18,871 bases of DNA from Nitrosospira multiformis ATCC 25196 (GCF_000196355.1 NC_007615.1:1-18871), one strand, 5' to 3'; counted from the stretch's first letter, positions 5,288 to 16,472 are shown. Made by a program: numbers and translations. Notes: generated by a model from the letters alone, not told the origin.

Positions 5288-5632
5288 TCAATCCCCTTCA
5301 AACCCACCATCCGCAATATTTGTGAAAAGGAGAATTTCCTCTTCCAGATTCTGTTCAATATCCATATTCTGGTGCGGAATGCCAATAATCTCTATTGTGC
5401 TTTCAACTACCCGGTAAAATATTATGTGGCTGCCTTCCTTGAAACTGCGGTAGCCTTCCTTTACTTCATCTCTTGCCCGTCCCAGCATGGGGTTGTCTGC
5501 CAGCCAGCGCATCCGTTCGCGAAGTTCCAGGGTGTACTTGTCGGCTTGGGATTTTCCCCATTTCTGGATCGTGTATTTACGTATGTTGGTGATATCGGTT
5601 TTTGCGGCCGGCGAGAGGATGTAACGTTTCAT
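5288..5632 (-). CDS. parE: ParE/RelE-family type II toxin
   Basis: MKRYILSPAAKTDITNIRKYT...WGKSQADKY...LADNPMLGRARDEV..GYRSF..GSHIIFYRV is a typical ParE pattern. The start overlaps the stop of the upstream antitoxin gene (ATGA). Confidence 0.88.
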   Translation of the reverse strand: MKRYILSPAAKTDITNIRKYTIQKWGKSQADKYTLELRERMRWLADNPMLGRARDEVKEGYRSFKEGSHIIFYRVVESTIEIIGIPHQNMDIEQNLEEEILLFTNIADGGFEGD

Positions 5633-5886
5633 GCTTCACTTAACAGTTCGGCAAAAACTGCTTCGCCGTCCACCCCTTCCCCCCTGTTTAGCTGTCCCTC
5701 ACCTACAGCCAGTTTCGCCTGCAACCTTTCAAGTTTCATCTGTTGGTATTCCCGGGCTGACATAACCACGGCAACAGCTCGCCCATGTTTTTCAATGGTA
5801 AGTGGTTCCCGCTGAACGGTGTCCAGCATTTCTCCAAAATTATTTTTTGCCTCTTTGGCAGCAATAGCTTTCATATAAAACCCCAT
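5629..5886 (-). CDS. phd: Phd/YefM-family antitoxin
   Basis: KAIAAKEAKNNFGEMLDTVQREPLTIEKHGRAVAVVMSAREYQQM is a typical Phd/YefM N-terminal domain. The true start may be the second Met (5874). The gene is operonic with parE. Confidence 0.85.
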   Translation of the reverse strand: MGFYMKAIAAKEAKNNFGEMLDTVQREPLTIEKHGRAVAVVMSAREYQQMKLERLQAKLAVGEGQLNRGEGVDGEAVFAELLSEA

Positions 5887-6170: not shown

Positions 6171-6557
6171 ATGCAGGATGTAAGAAAAACAATAAAACCT
6201 GTGGAGTGGGTCGGCTCAAGTTTCAGGGATTTCCGCGCGTTTCCTGATGCGGTCAAAGATGAAATGGGCTATGCGCTACACCAAGCTCAAATAGGTGGCA
6301 AAAGCCTCAGTGCTAAACCGCTTCAGGGGTTTGGGGGAGCCGGTGTTCTTGAAATTGTGACTAATGAGATGGGAGATACGTTTCGCGCTGTTTATACGGT
6401 GAAATTCGCAACGGCCATCTATGTGCTGCACGCTTTTCAAAAGAAATCGAAAAGTGGAATTAAAACACCTGCTGAAGACATGAAACTGATTGAACAAAGA
6501 TTCAAAGCAGCGGAAGCCGATTACAGGCTTCAACTTGAAAAAGGAAAAATATCATGA
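6171..6557 (+). CDS. higB: HigB/Gp49-like (RelE/ParE superfamily) toxin
   Basis: KPVEWVGSSFRDFRAFPDAVKDEMGYALHQAQ...GAGVLEIV...FRAVYTVKFATAIYVLHAFQKKSKSGIKTP matches the phage Gp49/HigB-like family pattern closely. The toxin-first gene order and the ATGA overlap with the antitoxin gene fit this family. Confidence 0.88.
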   Translation: MQDVRKTIKPVEWVGSSFRDFRAFPDAVKDEMGYALHQAQIGGKSLSAKPLQGFGGAGVLEIVTNEMGDTFRAVYTVKFATAIYVLHAFQKKSKSGIKTPAEDMKLIEQRFKAAEADYRLQLEKGKIS

Positions 6558-6907
6558 CTCAAGATATTGAAAACACCATTGTGCGCGGTTCCGAAAACCT
6601 TTTTGCAGACCTTGGTTATGCCGACGCTGAAACACATCTGCTTAAAGCTGGACTGGTGAACCGTATTCAGGAAGTTATCAACGAACAAAAAATGACACAA
6701 ACCGTTGCAGCCAAACGTATGGGGCTTAGTCAACCAGATGTGTCACGCCTGCTCAAGGGACATTTCCGCGATATATCCGTAGAACGCCTGATGCGGCTGT
6801 TGACCCGGCTTGGTTGTGAGATTGACATTGTCATCCGGGAGCAAGGTAAAAAAACTTCCCGCCGTAATACCATCCATCTAGGAATGGACGTCAACGTTAC
6901 GGCTTAA
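6554..6907 (+). CDS. higA: XRE-family HTH antitoxin (HigA-like)
   Basis: NLFADLGYADAE...MTQTVAAKRMGLSQPDVSRLLKGHFRDISVERLMRLLTRLGCEIDIVI is the typical partner of Gp49/HigB-like toxins. Confidence 0.85.
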   Translation: MTQDIENTIVRGSENLFADLGYADAETHLLKAGLVNRIQEVINEQKMTQTVAAKRMGLSQPDVSRLLKGHFRDISVERLMRLLTRLGCEIDIVIREQGKKTSRRNTIHLGMDVNVTA

Positions 6908-7389: not shown

Positions 7390-7432
7390 TCTGCAAGATG
7401 AAACTATTTTCTCTTGCTTGCAGAAATTTTTT
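7390..7432 (+). terminator. Candidate terminator for the XRE gene, overlapping the 3' end of the convergent nuclease gene
   Basis: TCTGCAAG (7390-7397) pairs with CTTGCAGA (7417-7424); alternatively GCAAGA pairs with TCTTGC. AAATTTTTT follows. The loop is rather large. Confidence 0.35.
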
Positions 7433-8837
7433 GCGTAGCATCGATCACAACAATCTCTGAGGCTGGTTCTCCACTCTCCAGGAGTGCATCACGTATTGCT
7501 TGTATGGTCGTAAGTTTTTTACCTAAATCGCCATAGTCAAGCACCACGAAGACACCATGGCTGGTGCGTGACGCGTCCTTATAAATCTCAAGCTGTTCTT
7601 TGTACCCATGTACGACAGTGCCCGATGAGCGTTTCATTTCAACAAGAACACGGGCACTATAACCCTTAGAATATTTAAAATCGATTGGTCCTCCACCCAT
7701 ATTAGCTTCCGGTGAAATGTCAATATCATTGGCTTTACAGAAGCAGTCGGTAATTGCAAAGTAAATTAGCTGGGCTGCGCGTTCCTTCTTCGGTTTATCG
7801 TCTATCCAAAGGGCCTCCCAGAGATTGCCCTTTTCTACATGATGCTTGAACATATCCATTGTGTCGTTTACGACACGATGGATTTCATCGATACCCTTCT
7901 CAATTTCATATTTTTTATTGGATTTAAGTTCATATTCTTTGCTACCAAGTATCCTCCTCAATGTGTAGTAGCCTAGAACATCACTGTTCGGATCATAATA
8001 TGCCGCATTCTCTTTAATGGCGGCAATAAAGGCTTCGAAAAGTTCTTTGGATTGAAGTGCTGCTTCACGGACAGCCTTTTTGAGATCATCAACTTTTGGG
8101 CGAGTAATACCTGCCAGGAGATGATTTACCCGTGCTCGGATGGCAGCGTTAGCGTCTATTGCTGCCTCAATATCCGACCAATCATTAGCCATTGGTAACT
8201 CCCGAACAATATCAGCGGGCACAAGCACAATCGCCCGCTCTTTTCCATTTGCAGAGGTGTAATGGGGTAATGGGATATCAGGAGAGGTATCTGACGTCTT
8301 TAACGTAATACCCAGAGGTGTGCAAAATTCATGGGTGAGCTTCGCGAGCTGTGGCTCAATTATTCTGGAAGTTAGGTCACTGATAGTATCTGCGCCGACT
8401 TTTTCTTCAAAAAAGCCCATAAGTGAAATCATCTCAGGATCTTGAGAGCCAAGCTCAATAATTTCTTTAGCTGTTCGAAGAATCGCGTTACGAATTTCTT
8501 CAGGGCGGGAAGTGCCAGGACGGTCGCTCCTTCCATAACCAAGGCCATTTGCAGGAGCTTCGCGAAGGTTAAATTGATTCTGGGCAGCCCTCCAAGCTGC
8601 ATCCCCCTCCTTCTTAGAAATGGCAAGCAGTCTAATTACATTTTCAAAATATTTCCTAAATGCTTTGTACGCTTCCTCACTAATGATCTTGTTTGAGCAT
8701 TTATCAAGCAAGATGGGATCAATGAACAAGCGCGTATCAACCGTCAGAAAGGGGTCGATCAATCCTGCCTTTGCAAGTTCATCCGGCGCAATTTTGAAAT
8801 GTTTGGAGAAAAGAAGGGGATTTGAGAAAGATGCCAT
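7404..8837 (-). CDS. 477-aa protein with a C-terminal RecB/Cas4-type PD-(D/E)xK nuclease domain and an unknown N-terminal domain of about 340 aa
   Basis: The motifs appear in order: helix KE352RAAQLIYF, GGGPID386F (GAT at 7680-7682), VLVE400-M-K402 (GAAATGAAA at 7632-7640), and Q415-LEI-Y419 (QxxxY). The gene is monocistronic and visibly AT-richer than its neighbours. I recognise no motif in residues 1-340. Confidence 0.6.
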   Translation of the reverse strand: MASFSNPLLFSKHFKIAPDELAKAGLIDPFLTVDTRLFIDPILLDKCSNKIISEEAYKAFRKYFENVIRLLAISKKEGDAAWRAAQNQFNLREAPANGLGYGRSDRPGTSRPEEIRNAILRTAKEIIELGSQDPEMISLMGFFEEKVGADTISDLTSRIIEPQLAKLTHEFCTPLGITLKTSDTSPDIPLPHYTSANGKERAIVLVPADIVRELPMANDWSDIEAAIDANAAIRARVNHLLAGITRPKVDDLKKAVREAALQSKELFEAFIAAIKENAAYYDPNSDVLGYYTLRRILGSKEYELKSNKKYEIEKGIDEIHRVVNDTMDMFKHHVEKGNLWEALWIDDKPKKERAAQLIYFAITDCFCKANDIDISPEANMGGGPIDFKYSKGYSARVLVEMKRSSGTVVHGYKEQLEIYKDASRTSHGVFVVLDYGDLGKKLTTIQAIRDALLESGEPASEIVVIDATQKISASKRK

Positions 8838-8996
8838 AATTTCGCTAAATAGAATTGAGCGAAAACTTATTTCGCCGCATTAAAACAATCTGCTATTGAG
8901 AGGAGCCGTTTAGATTGTAAGTTTTACGGCTGAGCAAGCAATTGGACTTAGGTACACCTGTCGCTGAGTATGGGTATTGAAGTTCTGTTGAGTCGC

Positions 8997-9044: not shown

Positions 9045-10016
9045 ATGACAACTCAAAACCCCGATTCCCAAAATGCCCTGCCTGCTACTAATCGGCGGCT
9101 TACTGCCGTTGCCTATCAGCGCCTCGCCGACATACCCCCTGAAATTGAATGGTTCGCCAACCTTCCGAATGATGCAACCCGCCGCGCTTACAACAATGCG
9201 CTAAAGGATTTTATGGGCTTTACTGACATCACCCGGCCTGATGAATTCCGTAGCGTAACCCGTGCGCATGTAATTGCCTGGCGCGACGAGCTGGTTAAAC
9301 GCTCTTTAAGTGGAACGACCATCCGCCACCGTCTCGCCGCTTTATCCTCTCTGTTCGAGTATTTATGCGAAAGAAACGCGGTAACCCATAATCCTGTGAA
9401 GGGGGTGAAGCGTCCCCCGGTGGAAAGCTATGAAGGTAAAACTCCGGCTCTTGGCGATCACCAGGCGCGTGCGCTGCTCGATGCTCCGCATAGTCTCTCA
9501 CTCAAGGGCAAGCGTGACCGTGCCTTGCTTGCTACCCTGCTCTACCATGCGCTGCGGCGCGACGAGCTATGCAGGCTCACCGTCAAGGATTTCAGGCATG
9601 AACGGCGTGGGGTCCGTCACTTGCGGGTCCTGGGTAAAGGCGGCAAGACCCGTTATATCCCGTTACACCCTGCCGCCAGCACTCTCATCACCGAGTATCT
9701 GGAAGCAGCGGGACATGGCGCGGAAGATTCAGCTCCCCTTTTCCACCCCGTCAGTAATAACTGCGCTGGGGTTTCAAGCAAGGCCCTTACGCCCGACGGG
9801 GTTTATAAGCTGGTACGCGAATATTCTTCAAACCTTGGTTTTGAAATTGGCCCGCACTCCTTGCGGGCTACCGCTGCGACTAACGCCCTGGACCATCAGG
9901 CCGATATTTCCAAAGTGCAGGAATGGCTGGGCCATGCCAATATCTCCACTACCCGCATTTATGACCACCGCAGGAGCCGACCCGAGGATAGTCCGACGTT
10001 TAAGGTTAGTTATTAA
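9045..10016 (+). CDS. Tyrosine recombinase / integrase (XerC/XerD-like)
   Basis: The N-terminal SAM-like region is TIRHRLAALSSLFEYL. The catalytic-domain motifs are RDRALLATLLYHALRRDEL (Arg), GKGGKTRYIPLHP, HSLRATAAT (HxxR), and LGHANISTTRIYDH (His and the nucleophilic Tyr). Confidence 0.9.
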   Translation: MTTQNPDSQNALPATNRRLTAVAYQRLADIPPEIEWFANLPNDATRRAYNNALKDFMGFTDITRPDEFRSVTRAHVIAWRDELVKRSLSGTTIRHRLAALSSLFEYLCERNAVTHNPVKGVKRPPVESYEGKTPALGDHQARALLDAPHSLSLKGKRDRALLATLLYHALRRDELCRLTVKDFRHERRGVRHLRVLGKGGKTRYIPLHPAASTLITEYLEAAGHGAEDSAPLFHPVSNNCAGVSSKALTPDGVYKLVREYSSNLGFEIGPHSLRATAATNALDHQADISKVQEWLGHANISTTRIYDHRRSRPEDSPTFKVSY

Positions 10017-10327: not shown

Positions 10328-10897
10328 TTAATTCTTAATTAAGATTCCAATAGGAATAAAGGGGGCATGGTTATATATTTGAAGCCCACGAACTTCAGAA
10401 AATTCTGAGGCTGATCTATAAGTTTTAAATAAACCAAATTTATTTATTGTTTTACTCAGGTAATTTTGAAAGAAGGGTATTTCACTTATTTTACCACACC
10501 CACTTAGGCCGCTAATTAAACCACGTAAATCTAGGATGTCGAATCCCATTAGTCGCCATCCCATATTTATAAGGGCAGTTTCCGAAGGCTGCTCCTCAAA
10601 CCATCCAAACCCATAGTGTTCTCTAAGGGCAATAGTATTTATTTCTAAACATGTCAACGAAATAAGACTTAATTGATCTATAGAAATATGATTTGATCGA
10701 CAAGTATTTATAAGGTCTTCAATATGCGTCGCAAGTGTTAGAGGATTACTTAAAGCATGAGCGTTATTTTGTATAAGATCATCAACTAGGGGAGGGCGAG
10801 GCCAAATATTTGGGTCGCCACTGATTTGCATGTGATTATTCAAATCCAGAGAAATTCTTAGATCGAATCCCAAACTTATTCTTCGATTCCTCATCAT
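10328..10897 (-). CDS. Putative immunity protein for the RHS C-terminal toxin (189 aa from the ATG; the track ORF extends to a TTG at 10930)
   Basis: The gene lies immediately downstream of the rhs gene. The minus strand reads TAATGATG, so the rhs TAA stop (10899-10897) shares its final A with an ATG (10897-10895), which suggests translational coupling. The gene is markedly AT-rich, like the toxin tip. No recognisable family, signal peptide or TM segment. Confidence 0.55.
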   Translation of the reverse strand: MMRNRRISLGFDLRISLDLNNHMQISGDPNIWPRPPLVDDLIQNNAHALSNPLTLATHIEDLINTCRSNHISIDQLSLISLTCLEINTIALREHYGFGWFEEQPSETALINMGWRLMGFDILDLRGLISGLSGCGKISEIPFFQNYLSKTINKFGLFKTYRSASEFSEVRGLQIYNHAPFIPIGILIKN

Positions 10898-13800
10898 TAT
10901 TGGTGAGGCCAAGTTGTATAATTGCCACAATCTTTTATTTCTTCTTTTCCTACTGGAGCTACCGGGGGAAATTGAGTTGTTCCTTTCGATCCACTCCCTC
11001 TATTCCAATAGCATTGACAAGTGTTAGGATTTTGTCCACGACTCCAAATATGATAGTGTGGATCCCACCCATTATGTGTGTGTCCAGTGTCGGGTTCATA
11101 ACATTGGGTTCCCTGAGGTGGATTACAGGGGGGGCAAATAGGTGGTTGAGCAGTTTTATTCTGAGCCGTTTTGGATTCTGAGTTTCCTGAGCACGCGTCA
11201 TATATCGTTGCTCCAGTGATTAAAATAGCCCAACCAGCCCACTTCTGCCAGGCTATATCGCTCGGATCCGGGGTTGCTATGTCAGAACTGGCCCCGCCAA
11301 GTATCCAAGGAAGTGCCCTCAGACCTAAAGGATCAATCATATTAATTGGATTTCCTCCCACATACCCATAAAGATTTAATCCTCCTTTTTCTCCAATCGG
11401 GTCACGCGATAGCCACTTCGCCGTTTTCGGGTCATAGGCCCGGAAATTCGTCAGGTACAATCCGCTCTGCTGATGATAGAACATCCCCGCATAGCGAAAG
11501 TCAACTGAAATCCGCCCACTCCCCGCTATCTGGTTTCCATAAGGATCATAGTCGTAGCTTGCCACCTTGGCCCCATTCTGGGCCGCCATCACGTCCCGCA
11601 CCGAGCCTAGATGGTCAGTGCCGTAATAAAGCAGAGTGCCGCCCTGCGGAATTGCCATGCCTTGCGGGTAATAGCGGCGTGTGACCACATCGCCTGCCGT
11701 TCTGGCCTGGCACAGCGTAGCGCCGCACCAGAGATGACGGGTTTCTGTTATTGCTCCTCCATTATTTTCGACAATAGCCAGCCGCCGCCCCATGCCATCG
11801 TAGCGGAACGTGGTCGCCTTGCTGGGATCGTTCTTGTAGCTGATGGAGAGCAGACGGTTTTCGGCATCCCACTGATAGGTGCGGACTCCGTCATCCTTCA
11901 GATTGCCGTTGGCGTCGTAACTGAAGCTTTCACTGTTAAAACTCGTCAATTGGTTGACGGTGTTGTAATGCGTCAACGCGCCATTGAGGGAAGTCAGGTT
12001 GTCAGCGGCGTCATAACCATAGCTGAAGCTTCCCCCGGATGAAGGCTGGGCGGAGAGGAGGCGGTCAGCGCCATCATAGGCGTAGTGCCAGCTCTTCTGC
12101 GCTGCTCCCCCCGCAGTTTCCGTCAGAGTGGAAATCTGGTTTTCCGGGGTGGTGGCATAGTGGAAACCGCGCGCCAGACCGCTGTTCGTGATCGACTTCA
12201 GGCGGCGGTCATGGGTGTTGTCCTCATAGCCCCACTGCGTTCCCACAGCCCCGGCCTGCTGGCTTAAAAGCTGCCCAGTCTGACCCAGATAGCTGAAATT
12301 GAAGGAGCCCAGCGGATTGGTATGCTGGGTGACGCGGTCGAGCCTGTCATAGGCAAAGGACTCGGTTATCGTATCCACCTTGCGGCTGGTCATCCGCCCC
12401 AATGCATCGTACTGGTAGGAAATCTCGTCATTGGTATAAGGCCCGTTCTCACCTGTCAGCTTGAGCGCCCCCAGGGAGCCGACAGCGCCATACTGGAACT
12501 GGGTGGTTCCCGCCCCATCGGTCATGGTGGTTCTGCGCGGGAAATAGGGGTCGTAGGCGAAGCTTACGCCCGGTGTGGGACTTATAGCATTGGCATAACT
12601 CAGCGCCGCGAGCCGGTCGTCCTTCGTATAGCCATACTGCCTGGTCTGTCCCAAAGCGTCGGTTACGCTTATCAGGCGGCTTGCGCTGTCATAGGCATAG
12701 GTTTCCCTGGAATCGTCGGCATAAACCTTGGCAATGGGGCGGCTCTGGATATCGATATCCCAGCGCGTCATGTTCCCGTTGCCGTCGGTGATGCTGCGCA
12801 ACACCCCGTTACGGTAATAGCTGTAACTGGTGGTCTGACCCGCAGGATCGGTCATCGAGGTCATGCGCCGGTTGGCGTCATAGCTGTAGCTCGTGGCCCT
12901 CCCCATCCTATCTTTTGTTTCTACCAGGTCGAGCAGGTCATAGGTATTCAGCGTGCTGGTTCCATCGGGATAGAGGATTTGCGTAACCCGGTCGAGGGCG
13001 TCGTATTCATAGGCCAGGGTGTGGCCTTCCGAATCGGTGGCGGTGGCAACGCGGTCGAAGGCGTCATAGGTGAAGCTGTGCTGCACCGCGTTATCCGGGT
13101 TGGTGATCGATATCAGCCGTCCCAGCCCATCATAGGCATAGCGCGTGGTCTGCCCGAGCGCGTCGGTCACGCCCGTTACCTGGCCATCCGAGTTGTAGGT
13201 ATAGGAAGTTGTCTTTCCCGCCGCATCGGTCGCAGTCAGGGGAAGGTGCTGGCTGTTGTAGGTGAAGGCCGCCAGCGTGGCCTGGCCGCTGCCCGTGGTC
13301 TGCTGGATGGAAGTAAGATCGATGTCATTGGAAGCGTAGGTAAAGGAAGTCTTGCGTCCTGTAGGATCTATGGCTGTGAGCGGCTTGCCGATGCTGTTAT
13401 AGGTAAATCTTCTTGCTTGCGTGGAGCCGTCATCTAATACTCGGCCGATTGCTATCGGTGTCCCGGCAGTTCCTTCCATGATGGAATTACCTTGTCCCGG
13501 GTAGGTATTCCAGACGCGGCGCTCAAGGGGCTGTTTGCTGCTTTCTATGATCGGCGAGGTCTGTCCAGCCGGGTTATGGAGCCAGTGAATGATTCGGGCT
13601 TGGGTGTAATCGGTATGAGTGATAGCATAAAGATGCTTGTCCCAGTGGAAAGTATTACGGTAGTAAAGAAAACCGTTCAGTATCCCCATGCCAGCCGGAG
13701 CCACAGGATCACCATTGGGTATGCCGGAAGCAAAATGCCGGAATTCCAGTCGTTCGGTAAAACCCATCGGATCGGTCATTTCCAAGAAGCGTGAGTTTTC

Positions 13801-15696
13801 ATAGATGTTCTGCCCATAGGTGAAATGATGGGTACCATAGGGTGTCGTCATTTCATTGATGAGCCCCCCCGTATCGTATTTGAAGGAGGAAGTAATGCCG
13901 ATCACATCGGTGATCGAGGCGAGACGTCTGTTTGTGTCGTATGTCAGTTCGGCACGGCGTCCGAATGGATCGGTTATTCCGGTTACGAGCAGGGGATTGG
14001 CAGGGAACTCATAACTGAAGATGGTGTTGCGGCCAGTGGCATCCGTGAGCGATACCAGGCGCAACTGATTGTCATAATTGAACGTTAGCGCGTTACCCGA
14101 AGGATCGATTATTTGGCTTAAGAACATGCGGCGCGGGTATACGGTTGCGCCATCGCTCTGGGCGAATACCTGCTTGCTTCCATCGGGCATGCGCAATTCA
14201 TAGGAAGTGGCGGGACCGGTGGCGGGTATGCGAACCAGCACTGCCTGACCCTGACGTTCAGGCGAGAACGCGCCGGATGCCGTTGAATAGCTGTAGCCGA
14301 TCGAATAATCCACCGATCCCCCGCCTGCCGCATAGCGCAGAACTGAGCGGCCCGGCGAGTCGGGAGTATCCTGAACCCAGGACAGCACGTTCAGTGTCCA
14401 TTTGGGGCTGATATTGAAAAAGCTGAAATTGGCTGGCTGGCTGGCTTCGCGCTGATTGTAGGTCAGGCTGATTTTGGCGGAAGGCCCCTTCGGCGGCTGG
14501 TACCCGACCGGAACGTCGCTTAAGTTCAGGCTCACCAGCATCATTTTAGCGTTCACTACACACATGGCTGGTGGTGACGCTGCGGAGCCAGTGAGAGGAA
14601 CAGGGCCTTTTGGATTGGAGCAGGTCAAGTTGCTATCAAGCTTCTGTGTCGTACCGGGCTGATTAACACTTGTCTGTCCCATTCCATAGATACGCCTTGC
14701 CTCTTCAGGAGTGGCCATACGCCAGGACGCAACTTTCTGGGTTCCAGCCGGAACCAGGAAATACCCGCTTGCCTCCGCATCGATGGCCTCCTTGGTGAGC
14801 CAGGCATCCCCGCTTGCGAAGGTGGGATCCTGGACATGGTAGAGGCCGTTCTGCTCACCGATGATGGCAGCATAATGATTCAGTTTCCAGTTCACCACTG
14901 AGGGGACGGGGATGGGCTGTCCGGGAGCACGGAAAATCAGCCGATGAGGTACGTTGGCCTTGCTTGCCAGCTCCGATACCTGGGCAAGCGTGTAGCCATG
15001 CGGACCTGAGCGCGCCGCATCCATGATGGCGATTTTTGCCGGATCGGCCTGGGCCGAGACCAGCAGACTCTTGAGCGCCATGGGACCGCAAAGGTAAGCC
15101 TTGTCGTACTCGTTTCGGAACATCCACAGGCTTTCATGAGCGTCCGTGATCAATTCCGTGGCGGGACCGCTGATGGGCCGGTCCTTGATATCGGCAAGCA
15201 GTTTTTCAAGCTCGTCCGCATGTCCCAGGCGGGAGTGCATGCGCATCAGCTCCCCCATGGCGCGGTCTGCCAGCATCTTGCCCATAGGATTATCGGCGGG
15301 ACGAGTTCTTTCCGTCTGCCAGGCCCGCTCCCACGCATTTATCGCCCTGGAGAAATAGCCCTGGCGGTAATAGGCAAGCCCCAGATTGGCGAGAATCCCG
15401 ACATTCCATCCCGAGCGCGGATACTCTTTAAGGAAAGTCTCGAATACGGCCAGATCTTCAAAAGACGACTGGCTGCGATGGGTGGAGATGGCTTCCGCGA
15501 GGGCCCGGTCTTCCTTCGGCGTGGTTCCATACATGGGAACCAGAGGCTCCTCGAATCCATCCACCTTGAGAAGCGGAAGAGGCGCGGGGTTTTCTGGAGG
15601 GGCGGCATGGAGGAGAGGGCTTGCCAGCAAAAGCAGCGTGGCAAAAAGAGAGGGAATGAAACGGGAAACGGCCATACTGGACCAGAGGCGAGCCAT
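10897..15696 (-). CDS. rhs: Secreted RHS/YD-repeat polymorphic toxin (1599 aa)
   Basis: Dozens of YD repeats are present (for example YTYNSDGQVTGVTDALGQTTRYAYDGLGRLISITNPDN). The RHS-associated core ends FRAYDPKTAKWLSRDPIGEKGGLNLYGYVGGNPINMIDPLGL. The N-terminus is a signal peptide. An AGGAG RBS lies 5 nt upstream of the ATG at 15696. Confidence 0.95.
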   Translation of the reverse strand: MARLWSSMAVSRFIPSLFATLLLLASPLLHAAPPENPAPLPLLKVDGFEEPLVPMYGTTPKEDRALAEAISTHRSQSSFEDLAVFETFLKEYPRSGWNVGILANLGLAYYRQGYFSRAINAWERAWQTERTRPADNPMGKMLADRAMGELMRMHSRLGHADELEKLLADIKDRPISGPATELITDAHESLWMFRNEYDKAYLCGPMALKSLLVSAQADPAKIAIMDAARSGPHGYTLAQVSELASKANVPHRLIFRAPGQPIPVPSVVNWKLNHYAAIIGEQNGLYHVQDPTFASGDAWLTKEAIDAEASGYFLVPAGTQKVASWRMATPEEARRIYGMGQTSVNQPGTTQKLDSNLTCSNPKGPVPLTGSAASPPAMCVVNAKMMLVSLNLSDVPVGYQPPKGPSAKISLTYNQREASQPANFSFFNISPKWTLNVLSWVQDTPDSPGRSVLRYAAGGGSVDYSIGYSYSTASGAFSPERQGQAVLVRIPATGPATSYELRMPDGSKQVFAQSDGATVYPRRMFLSQIIDPSGNALTFNYDNQLRLVSLTDATGRNTIFSYEFPANPLLVTGITDPFGRRAELTYDTNRRLASITDVIGITSSFKYDTGGLINEMTTPYGTHHFTYGQNIYENSRFLEMTDPMGFTERLEFRHFASGIPNGDPVAPAGMGILNGFLYYRNTFHWDKHLYAITHTDYTQARIIHWLHNPAGQTSPIIESSKQPLERRVWNTYPGQGNSIMEGTAGTPIAIGRVLDDGSTQARRFTYNSIGKPLTAIDPTGRKTSFTYASNDIDLTSIQQTTGSGQATLAAFTYNSQHLPLTATDAAGKTTSYTYNSDGQVTGVTDALGQTTRYAYDGLGRLISITNPDNAVQHSFTYDAFDRVATATDSEGHTLAYEYDALDRVTQILYPDGTSTLNTYDLLDLVETKDRMGRATSYSYDANRRMTSMTDPAGQTTSYSYYRNGVLRSITDGNGNMTRWDIDIQSRPIAKVYADDSRETYAYDSASRLISVTDALGQTRQYGYTKDDRLAALSYANAISPTPGVSFAYDPYFPRRTTMTDGAGTTQFQYGAVGSLGALKLTGENGPYTNDEISYQYDALGRMTSRKVDTITESFAYDRLDRVTQHTNPLGSFNFSYLGQTGQLLSQQAGAVGTQWGYEDNTHDRRLKSITNSGLARGFHYATTPENQISTLTETAGGAAQKSWHYAYDGADRLLSAQPSSGGSFSYGYDAADNLTSLNGALTHYNTVNQLTSFNSESFSYDANGNLKDDGVRTYQWDAENRLLSISYKNDPSKATTFRYDGMGRRLAIVENNGGAITETRHLWCGATLCQARTAGDVVTRRYYPQGMAIPQGGTLLYYGTDHLGSVRDVMAAQNGAKVASYDYDPYGNQIAGSGRISVDFRYAGMFYHQQSGLYLTNFRAYDPKTAKWLSRDPIGEKGGLNLYGYVGGNPINMIDPLGLRALPWILGGASSDIATPDPSDIAWQKWAGWAILITGATIYDACSGNSESKTAQNKTAQPPICPPCNPPQGTQCYEPDTGHTHNGWDPHYHIWSRGQNPNTCQCYWNRGSGSKGTTQFPPVAPVGKEEIKDCGNYTTWPHQ
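10900..11319 (-). other. 140-aa variable C-terminal toxin tip of the RHS protein (unassigned family)
   Basis: The tip comprises a hydrophobic segment WAGWAILITGATIY, then the Cys/His cluster CPPCNPPQGTQCYEPDTGHTHNGWDPHYHIWSRGQNPNTCQCYW. The region is AT-richer than the YD core. Confidence 0.7.
11320..11334 (-). other. DPLGL motif marking the RHS core / toxin-tip boundary
   Basis: The reverse complement of 11320-11334 is GATCCTTTAGGTCTG, encoding D-P-L-G-L. This is the conserved PxxxxDPxGL demarcation of RHS proteins. Confidence 0.9.
14749..15114 (-). other. C39-like (papain-fold) cysteine peptidase domain within the RHS N-terminal region
   Basis: YLC203GPMALKSLL ... WKLNH274YAAIIGEQNGLYHVQD290P has the CG...HY..(hydrophobic)...DP spacing typical of peptidase C39 and C39-like domains. 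It is preceded by TPR-like helices (NLGLAYYRQGYFSRAINAWERAW). Confidence 0.55.
15604..15696 (-). other. Sec-type signal peptide of the RHS protein
   Basis: MARLWSSMAVSRFIPSLFATLLLLASPLLHA/APPENP has a basic n-region, a hydrophobic core and an AxA-like cleavage site (LHA). Confidence 0.7.
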
Positions 15697-15806: not shown

Positions 15807-16472
15807 TCATGCCTTGACTTTCCTGCGGCGCAGAGCCCACGCTCCCGCCCCTCCCAAACAGAGCAAGGCGAGGCTTGAAGGCTCAGGTAGCGGGTTGGGC
15901 GGTGGCGTGGTCGAACCTGGTGCGAAGGTCAGGTTATCCAGTGTGAATTGCGTGCAGTTCACTGTGCCGCACTGGAACGGGTCCGTTGTGGAGCCAGTTG
16001 CAGCCGCGAAGAAATTCAGTTCGTTGATGCCGGTGAAGCCAAAGTTTACAAACAGGGGAGCAGCCGTATCGAGGGTCAGGGTTGTTGTGAACAGCAAAGT
16101 TCCATTCAGCCTGCCCTGCACCGTGAGGCTCAGATCATCGTAATAGCCGGAACCCAGATAAGCGCTAACAAAGTCGAAGGGATCGTCGGCTTCTATTTTG
16201 CCGATAACGGGAGTAACGATCGGGCCGAACGACTCACCCCCGCTATAGGCGGCATTATCGGGGGAGACAATGCCGTTATTGAATCCGGGAAAGCCGGGAA
16301 TGCTCGTATAGGCCGAGAAATTAGTCCAGGTGAAACCCTGATAAGGGCTCAGGGTATCCAGAACCAGATCGCCGCCTGAAGCGTCAAGATCATCGAAATT
16401 GACGATGGCGGCAGAAGCAAGGGAAATCTGGGAAAGCAGGAGGGTGGCAGTAAAAGCGATTTTGGAAAACAT
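15807..16472 (-). CDS. PEP-CTERM sorting-domain protein (221 aa)
   Basis: The signal peptide is MFSKIAFTATLLLSQISLASA. The C-terminus PLPEPSSLALLCLGGAGAWALRRRKVKA has a PEP motif, a TM helix and an Arg/Lys cluster. The body has the FDDL...YQGFTWTNF pattern common in PEP-CTERM proteins. A GGAGGAG RBS is present. Confidence 0.88.
   Translation of the reverse strand: MFSKIAFTATLLLSQISLASAAIVNFDDLDASGGDLVLDTLSPYQGFTWTNFSAYTSIPGFPGFNNGIVSPDNAAYSGGESFGPIVTPVIGKIEADDPFDFVSAYLGSGYYDDLSLTVQGRLNGTLLFTTTLTLDTAAPLFVNFGFTGINELNFFAAATGSTTDPFQCGTVNCTQFTLDNLTFAPGSTTPPPNPLPEPSSLALLCLGGAGAWALRRRKVKA

Follow-up and report, generated by a model that had tools for sequence, protein, structure and literature searches.

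How does an Rhs toxin leave the cell that makes it, and enter the cell that it attacks, when it does not travel with a type VI secretion system (T6SS)? Mechanistic work on Gram-negative Rhs proteins has been almost wholly about T6SS delivery. The plasmid of Nitrosospira multiformis ATCC 25196 (NC_007615.1) raises the question directly. The window analyzed here is this entire replicon, 18,871 bp, and a single rhs gene takes up a quarter of it (25.4% of the bases), as an initial annotation made from the sequence alone had pointed out. We lean, if not strongly, toward the reading that the locus is a T6SS-independent Rhs toxin-immunity module on a mobilizable plasmid, that the toxin is exported through Sec and a type II secretion system (T2SS), and that an N-terminal peptidase matures the toxin in cis. 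The layout on which this reading is built, an Rhs toxin behind a TPR-C39 module, is real and widespread, but not categorically new.

The plasmid carries a full Rhs toxin gene

From its N to its C terminus, the rhs product consists of a signal peptide, a TPR domain, a C39 peptidase, a linker, a YD shell, a DPLGL motif, and a toxin tip (Table 1). Its automatic names are "RHS repeat-associated core domain-containing protein" at NCBI and "Peptidase C39, bacteriocin processing" in UniProt (Q2Y592). We found that RHS_repeat (PF05593) matched 12 stretches of the protein with an E value of 4e-72 and that TIGR01643 matched it with an E value of 1e-52. The Rhs-associated core (NCBIfam Rhs_assc_core, TIGR03696) was placed at residues 1383 to 1459 (E value, 4e-23). 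The protein contains the sequence NPINMIDPLGL, in which DPLGL (residues 1455 to 1459) fits the pattern PxxxxDPxGL, and its closest solved relatives were Rhs cocoon structures (7q97; E value, 9e-57). Judged by its sequence, the protein belongs fully to the Rhs polymorphic toxin family, and these matches bear out the initial annotation, which had called it an Rhs toxin. The YD shell that it had described is also present, and the conserved motif MxVSLNLxDTPVGYxPP sets the start of the shell at about residue 383 rather than at about residue 390.

We scanned the Rhs protein, both flanking open reading frames (ORFs), the other main ORFs, and four further ORFs of the plasmid for T6SS and Tc toxin families. 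The Rhs protein, its neighbors on either side, and the other main ORFs contained no match to PAAR, VgrG, DUF6531, SpvB/TcdB, or any T6SS family. Among the plasmid ORFs scanned, there were likewise no PAAR, VgrG, T6SS, or TcA/TcB-like neighbors, as had been claimed. We rejected a T6SS Rhs effector because no PAAR or prePAAR domain, DUF6531, VgrG-binding N terminus, or vgrG, hcp, tss, or chaperone neighbor was present in the scanned ORFs. The BC component of a Tc (ABC) toxin was also rejected, given that there was no SpvB/TcdB Pfam match and no TcA neighbor. Tc-like and anti-eukaryotic readings in general were rejected because a coupled immunity gene is present and TcA/TcB are absent.

The N terminus of the protein reads MARLWSSMAVSRFIPSLFATLLLLASPLLHA, followed by AP, and has two Arg and then a hydrophobic core of 16 residues. 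A sequence heuristic predicts a Sec signal here, in agreement with the initial annotation, and the leader is kept in the family: of 60 homologues, 56 have a comparable hydrophobic segment N-terminal to the conserved FEEPL motif. Within the GFEEPLV segment, E50 showed at least 98% identity, and P51 and L52 showed at least 90%. An AlphaFold (AF2) model of residues 1 to 400, built from 22 homologues, had a predicted local distance difference test score (pLDDT) above 90 over residues 40 to 340 and placed an all-helical repeat domain at residues 60 to 195, followed by an alpha/beta domain. The Pfam TPR_2 match to the single sequence was weak (E value, 4e-4, below the cut-off). The best PDB matches of the helical part in Foldseek were canonical three-repeat TPR domains, and the N-terminal family profile matched consensus TPR proteins (E value, 7e-6), which agrees with the TPR-like helices noticed earlier.

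The N-terminal peptidase domain has an invariant triad

Pfam Peptidase_C39 (PF03412) matched residues 203 to 317 with 23.8 bits (cut-off, 22) when the N-terminal 400 residues were scanned alone and with 20.9 bits, against the same cut-off, in the scan of the full-length protein. The family was matched in 21 of 22 homologues, with a best E value of 1.3e-8. In Foldseek, the top matches of the alpha/beta domain were the double-glycine C39 domains of LahT150 (6mpz), ComA (5xe8 and 3k8u), and PCAT1, with E values of about 1e-4, a probability of 1.00, and TM scores of 0.60 to 0.70 relative to the target. By profile and by model, the domain belongs to the C39 fold family, and the peptidase fold that had been proposed for residues 195 to 316 stands on both.

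We found that Cys203, Gly204, His274, and Asp290 were identical in all of the 80 aligned homologues, which are 35 to 55% identical to the plasmid protein. An invariant triad in 80 divergent homologues strongly indicates that the peptidase is active and that catalysis is under selection, and C203, the residue that the initial annotation had singled out, is its catalytic Cys. The domain ends in a conserved tail, WRxxxxxEAxxxxG338-x-G340-T, in which G338 was kept in 79 and G340 in 77 of the 80 homologues. The linker behind it is rich in Pro, Gly, and Thr; its median length was 32 residues over the 80 rows, and it had at most 89 residues where both flanking motifs could be located. No conserved Gly-Gly site was found in the linker among the homologues, which share only G338-x-G340. 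We also found no ABC transporter domain in the Rhs protein or in the plasmid ORFs scanned. Because there is no such transporter and the Sec leader would place the domain outside the cytoplasm, the domain is not a bacteriocin-exporter peptidase, despite the UniProt name.

The toxin tip is polymorphic and has a putative immunity gene

The chromosomal paralogue of N. multiformis (locus L085) is 88% identical to the plasmid protein up to residue 1466 and 17% identical thereafter, and both its tip (Ntox50) and its immunity gene (MafI2) differ from those of the plasmid. Tips are mutually unrelated across family members. On the plasmid, the rhs core has a GC content of about 0.58, which drops to 0.41 in the tip and the gene behind it. 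The tip consists of a pre-toxin segment of about 45 residues with a hydrophobic helix and then a Cys/His-rich domain (PPCNPPxGTxCYE...GHTHNGWDPHYHIW...CYWNR). Only two homologues of it were detectable, P0091 and P0092. P0092 shares the first 45 or so residues (ILGxxxxDIATPDPSDIAWQKWA and the hydrophobic helix) and has a different distal part, which suggests that these residues form a separate pre-toxin or entry segment. The distal Cys/His-rich part, with GHTHNGWDPHYHIW, is common to P0091 only. Neither the tip nor the downstream protein had a match in Pfam, NCBIfam, PADLOC, or PDB, including searches with a three-sequence profile. A His-Me-finger nuclease for GHTHNGWDPHYH and the Cys-rich tip would be a guess, and we do not claim it.

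A homologue of the 189-residue downstream protein (E value, 2e-16) follows a homologous tip in an unrelated alphaproteobacterial locus (L091), which supports a cognate toxin-immunity pair. The TAATG overlap couples the downstream gene translationally to rhs, and its product is a putative cytoplasmic immunity protein.

Locus L091 (3058-5161), from an alphaproteobacterial metagenome-assembled genome, is a miniature system of three genes. The first encodes a secreted protein with Transglut_core2, which is papain-like, and TPR. The second encodes 191 residues made up of a signal peptide, the last 30 or so residues of an Rhs core, and the homologue of the plasmid's toxin tip, and the third encodes the homologue of the plasmid's immunity protein. 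A thiol-peptidase-like fold with TPR thus adjoins this toxin tip again. We rejected the Transglut_core2-TPR protein as a relative of the TPR-C39 module, as BLAST detected no homology.

The TPR-C39 layout is shared by a large family

A profile of the N-terminal module matched 3,393 cluster representatives (50% identity) at an E value of 1e-3 or below and 1,397 at 1e-30 or below. A scan of one genome per species gave 263 relatives, of which 80 loci were kept for analysis. In these loci the gene is nearly always 1,500 to 1,870 residues long and has the same layout. The hosts include Competibacter, Accumulibacter, Methylococcales, Rhizobiales, Variovorax, Polyangiaceae, Acidobacteria, Verrucomicrobia, and Fibrobacteres, and a homologue is also present in 108 Ralstonia megaplasmid records of PLSDB. 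The N terminus had been called atypical. This holds relative to T6SS Rhs proteins only; it is not a one-off, because at least 1,397 clusters, from Proteobacteria, Acidobacteria, and other phyla, share the layout. Clustering of the ORFs within 6 kb of about 80 homologues revealed no universal neighbor.

Two further loci (L085, 7789-12935, and L086, 7794-13233) show other tips in the family. A second module of partner, Rhs, and immunity genes, in which an Ntox50 tip is paired with MafI2 immunity, lies on an N. multiformis chromosomal contig. The tip of another family member is Tlde1, whose target is peptidoglycan in the periplasm. The family may therefore deliver to more than one compartment.

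Type II secretion genes lie beside some homologues

In Ralstonia (L084, 1-8365), the homologue is divergent from gspG, gspF, gspE, a PilN-like gene, and a secretin gene. In two Acetobacteraceae loci (L033, 14788-20749, and L044, 16704-19749), GspE and GspF are encoded downstream of the homologue. Genes for pseudopilins, GspK, GspE, and GspF and a GspL-like gene come immediately after it in L033. No immunity-sized gene lies in L033 between the Rhs stop and the first pseudopilin gene. A 2025 preprint independently reported gspG linkage for every one of the 56 proteins in a Ralstonia Rhs family and for 180 Rhs toxins of Xanthomonas, and it predicted T2SS export (10.1101/2025.05.08.652813). It says nothing of TPR, C39, or a signal peptide. 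Bcn-A, an Rhs-family bacteriocin of X. perforans, is active in the supernatant, an activity that disappears when the T2SS gene xpsD is mutated (PMC7259588).

With T2SS clusters beside homologues, the preprint, and Bcn-A taken together, Sec followed by T2SS is the best-supported route. From the sequence and by analogy, we infer that the plasmid's Rhs toxin would be exported in this way. The initial annotation had proposed Sec-dependent export with an unknown onward route. The leader stands, and the onward route can be narrowed, probably to T2SS, by the synteny in Ralstonia and Acetobacteraceae and by the preprint.

A PEP-CTERM partner lies upstream of rhs

Directly upstream of rhs, on the same strand and across a gap of 110 bp, lies a gene that the initial annotation, right about the absence of T6SS and Tc components, had overlooked. 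It encodes a PEP-CTERM protein whose C terminus, LPEPSSLALLCLGGAGAWALRRRKVKA, comprises the PEP motif, a transmembrane helix, and a basic tail; PF07589 matched it with 27.4 bits (cut-off, 20.7) and TIGR02595 with 28.4 bits (cut-off, 16). The AF2 model of the partner had a pLDDT of 90, and its Foldseek matches were to carbohydrate-binding modules (CBM4/16/22/32/51), a gingipain adhesin domain, and toxin receptor-binding domains.

We found homologues of the partner directly upstream, on the same strand, in 10 Rhs-homologue loci from several clades and two phyla, with a median gap of 28 bp. Viewed from the partner side (127 homologues), three of the five informative loci then carry an Rhs homologue, and the two most divergent do not. 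The Rhs homologues in these three loci aligned from about residues 1 to 33 onward, and Pfam C39 was flagged in L088. The partner loci are L004, L007, L011, L013, L018, L021, L022, L026, L060, L085, L086, and L088, in Beta- and Gammaproteobacteria and Acidobacteria. On the strength of this recurrence and of the modeled fold, we infer that the partner is an optional accessory that would tie the toxin to the surface or matrix or aid its targeting.

Other members have other upstream genes. Alphaproteobacterial members instead have a repeat protein of 770 to 2,830 residues that starts with WIGxxxADWxxxxNWSxGxP, shows no obvious signal peptide, and gives only a sub-threshold Pfam match, to DUF4097; the gene for it ends a few bases past the Rhs start (loci L048, 6860-9814; L071; L078; L076; L081; L033, 1398-9893; and L044, 2046-9941). 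Many Rhizobiales loci have a secreted protein of about 100 residues, encoded about 70 bp upstream of the Rhs gene, with a single RHS repeat and a C-terminal WGxGxWGCxxW (L047, 9504-9806; L077, 5418-5750; L039, 1369-1761); this cluster spans 16 loci. Pfam detected no domain shared among the differing upstream genes.

A model for export and maturation, and its alternatives

According to the reading that we prefer, the precursor would cross the inner membrane via Sec, fold in the periplasm, and leave through the host T2SS. The toxin would then act as a bacteriocin that either diffuses or stays at the cell surface or matrix; the PEP-CTERM partner, with its CBM-like domain, would be the accessory for surface retention or targeting. 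In the most speculative step, the N-terminal peptidase would cut in cis, at or near the G338-x-G340 tail or the linker, and this cut would separate the TPR-peptidase module from the loaded shell. The hydrophobic pre-toxin segment of the tip is a candidate element for entry into the target cell. We favor maturation in cis because the flexible tether is always present, the G-x-G is near-invariant, T6SS Rhs proteins undergo N-terminal cleavage, and there is a precedent in StbD-CT. In StbD-CT, the C39 domain acts in cis on its own linker, which it cleaves at Gly-Gly, and it is redox gated (10.64898/2026.05.07.723447).

Several points weigh against this reading. A thiol protease may be poorly active in the oxidizing periplasm or outside the cell. 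There is no conserved Gln in the residues shortly before the Cys, where C39 enzymes typically have the oxyanion-hole Gln; in the 80 homologues, position -8 is N, H, K, or T and position -7 is D, N, or E. G338-x-G340 is not a canonical Gly-Gly C39 site, and it lies within the tail, which is modeled as folded with confidence (pLDDT, 96), rather than within the linker, which is disordered. The partner is present in only about one-eighth of the family loci, and some of its homologues are not linked to Rhs. There are no T2SS genes on the plasmid, so export would have to use a chromosomal T2SS. T2SS synteny was found in only three lineages among about 85 loci, and most family loci do not have it. 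We found no experimental work on the TPR-C39-Rhs family in the literature.

What the peptidase cuts could also be another protein. The TPR-C39 module would then act in trans, with the TPR domain capturing a peptide and the peptidase cutting the partner, a secretion or surface component, or an envelope protein or receptor of the target, which would enable docking or entry; this is a serious rival, to which we give a real but clearly minor chance. TPR domains bind peptides, the usual substrates of C39 enzymes are other proteins (leader peptides), and an invariant triad suits a multi-turnover enzyme as well as a self-cleaver. A variable secreted protein is often encoded just upstream (PEP-CTERM, large repeat, or 100-residue YD-repeat proteins), and StbD-CT, a C39 domain in a polymorphic toxin, cleaves specific target proteins (10.64898/2026.05.07.723447). 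However, the PEP-CTERM partner has no conserved Gly-Gly (GG on the plasmid, AG or GD in homologues), the upstream genes vary by clade although the peptidase is constant, and no candidate substrate was identified. It is also conceivable, and in our view improbable, that the module serves mainly for recognition, either in T2SS or surface targeting or in binding a target receptor as the colicin R domain does, and that catalysis plays a lesser part or is vestigial, like that of the C39-like domains in RTX transporters. To our knowledge, the catalytic Cys is missing from inactive C39-like domains. In the plasmid protein and its homologues, the triad residues Cys, His, and Asp are 100% conserved across 80 divergent sequences. 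A domain without catalytic activity would hardly account for this, and a purely binding role seems unlikely. Recognition would nevertheless suit T2SS substrates, which need folded recognition surfaces, and the module is the sole constant N-terminal feature of a family with T2SS synteny. The authors of the Bcn-A study proposed that the N terminus binds an outer membrane protein of the target (PMC7259588).

The export step of the preferred reading has its own alternative, namely, that there is no dedicated export past the periplasm. Release would then occur by lysis or in outer membrane vesicles, or the module would be chiefly a plasmid-retention (addiction) device. The absence of secretion genes from the plasmid and of T2SS synteny from most family loci fits this view, and Tc toxins are reported to be released when a subpopulation lyses (PMC10847046). 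Against it, T2SS synteny recurs in unrelated lineages and Bcn-A is a T2SS-dependent precedent. The plasmid already holds two classical toxin-antitoxin pairs, so the Rhs module is not needed for plasmid retention. We consider this alternative rather unlikely. Extended to the whole family, the preferred reading leads to a broader proposal, which is doubtful and which we offer only tentatively. TPR-C39 proteins would be a major T6SS-independent Rhs delivery class (>1,000 clusters) that uses Sec and then T2SS; some lineages would hold the toxin on the surface or exopolysaccharide matrix by a lectin-like PEP-CTERM partner; and the peptidase would be a triggered release switch, for example, redox or contact gated like StbD, that frees the loaded shell for entry into a neighboring cell.

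Other features of the plasmid

The plasmid encodes a NikA/MobC-like protein, a MobA/VirD2-type relaxase, a TraD/TraG-type coupling protein, a tyrosine recombinase, ParA, and Rep. We found no mating-pair genes on it. With a relaxase and a coupling protein but no mating-pair genes, the plasmid is aptly called mobilizable, the term that had been used for it. The closest Rep protein in PLSDB was that of a Nitrosomonas plasmid (69% identity). A near-identity search with the whole plasmid against PLSDB gave a single match, positions 8929 to 8978 (96% over 50 bp), to a plasmid of Nitrosospira sp. NRS527. This stretch, a possible recombination or resolution site, is immediately upstream of the gene for the tyrosine recombinase (9045-10016). 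Neither Pfam nor NCBIfam assigned a family to a 477-residue ORF, which may have a role in defense.

Table 1. Features of the N. multiformis plasmid (positions counted from the first base of the window; aa, residues of the encoded protein)
Feature	Position	Strand	Basis
rhs gene, 1599 aa plus stop, ATG start	10897..15696	(-)	ABB76079.1 / WP_011382064.1 / UniProt Q2Y592, exact match
Predicted Sec-type signal peptide, aa 1-31, predicted cleavage between LHA and AP	15604..15696	(-)	Sequence heuristic
Conserved N-terminal segment GFEEPLV and TPR-like helical domain, aa 40-195	15112..15579	(-)	AF2, Foldseek, profile, conservation
C39-fold cysteine peptidase, aa 196-341, Cys203/His274/Asp290, including C-terminal tail	14674..15111	(-)	Pfam, fold, conservation
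Flexible, length-variable linker, aa 342-382	14551..14673	(-)	AF2 pLDDT 35-49
YD-repeat (Rhs) shell, including Rhs-associated core and DPLGL aspartyl autocleavage motif, aa 383-1459	11320..14550	(-)	Pfam, NCBIfam, PDB matches
Polymorphic C-terminal toxin tip, 140 aa, aa 1460-1599	10900..11319	(-)	Identity break, GC drop
Putative cognate immunity gene, 189 aa, no signal peptide	10328..10897	(-)	Start overlaps rhs stop (TAATG)
PEP-CTERM partner, 221 aa: signal peptide, beta-sandwich domain of ~170 aa, sorting anchor	15807..16472	(-)	PF07589, TIGR02595
Two type II toxin-antitoxin pairs (ParE/Phd-YefM; Gp49(HigB-like)/HTH_37)	5288-5886 and 6171-6907	(-) and (+)	
477-aa ORF between HTH gene and recombinase	7404-8837	(-)	Weak PADLOC match PDC-M36A, E value 5e-7, aa 29-182

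Significance and comparison with known systems

The family offers a concrete handle on the delivery of Rhs toxins outside the T6SS. It has a constant N-terminal module with a mutable triad (C203, H274, and D290), a tractable Ralstonia solanacearum homologue beside a T2SS cluster, and, in some lineages, a conserved surface partner. Because its members are frequent among bacteria of soil, sludge, and the rhizosphere (nitrifiers, Accumulibacter, Competibacter, rhizobia, and Acidobacteria), the family may shape competition in communities that matter to agriculture and engineering. As the module described here sits on a mobilizable plasmid, it can spread horizontally.

We found no description of an N-terminal TPR-C39 module in Rhs toxins in the literature, and the databases annotate the domain automatically. 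Zhang et al. (2012) defined a "T2SS/Sec" Rhs class and recognized many "releasing peptidases" (PMC3482391); in that work C39-like domains appear only as C-terminal toxins (Tox-PLC39), and we found no N-terminal TPR-C39 module there. WapA and other Sec-dependent Rhs/YD toxins resemble the plasmid protein in having a signal peptide and a downstream immunity gene. Bcn-A is likewise of the Rhs family and has T2SS-dependent activity in the supernatant, but it is shorter (1,398 residues) and needs extra ORFs. The megaplasmid Rhs protein of Ralstonia RRhs F II is homologous over the whole N-terminal module, with about 50% identity over residues 48 to 400. In contrast to the gspG-linked Ralstonia and Xanthomonas (XRhs F VIII) families, the N. 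multiformis plasmid has no T2SS genes. Its toxin has the Sec signal peptide expected of a T2SS-dependent Rhs bacteriocin, as predicted by the sequence heuristic. Since the gspG/T2SS linkage is absent from the plasmid, the toxin probably works like the gspG-linked Rhs proteins and is not one of them by synteny.

The C39 domains of ABC exporters (ComA, LahT, and PCAT1) have the same papain-like fold, Cys/His/Asp triad, and CGP...H(Y/F)...DP motifs. The plasmid protein differs from them in that its domain is joined to TPR and an Rhs shell instead of an ABC transporter, has a Sec leader and no evident double-glycine leader substrate, and shows no conserved oxyanion Gln in the sequence alignment. 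StbD-CT, which is CdiA-like, also has a C39 domain beside a flexible linker in a polymorphic toxin, and its structure (8ssk) was among the Foldseek matches. There, however, the peptidase is the C-terminal toxin and is neutralized by immunity, whereas here it is N-terminal, constant, and apart from the variable tip. With the T6SS Rhs effectors (Photorhabdus Rhs1 [7q97], Tse5, RhsP, and Tse15), the plasmid protein shares the YD shell, the core with DPxGL, the encapsulated tip, and the downstream immunity gene. It differs from them at the other end, where it has no PAAR, prePAAR, VgrG-binding, or clade domain and carries a Sec leader, a TPR domain, and an active-looking C39 peptidase.

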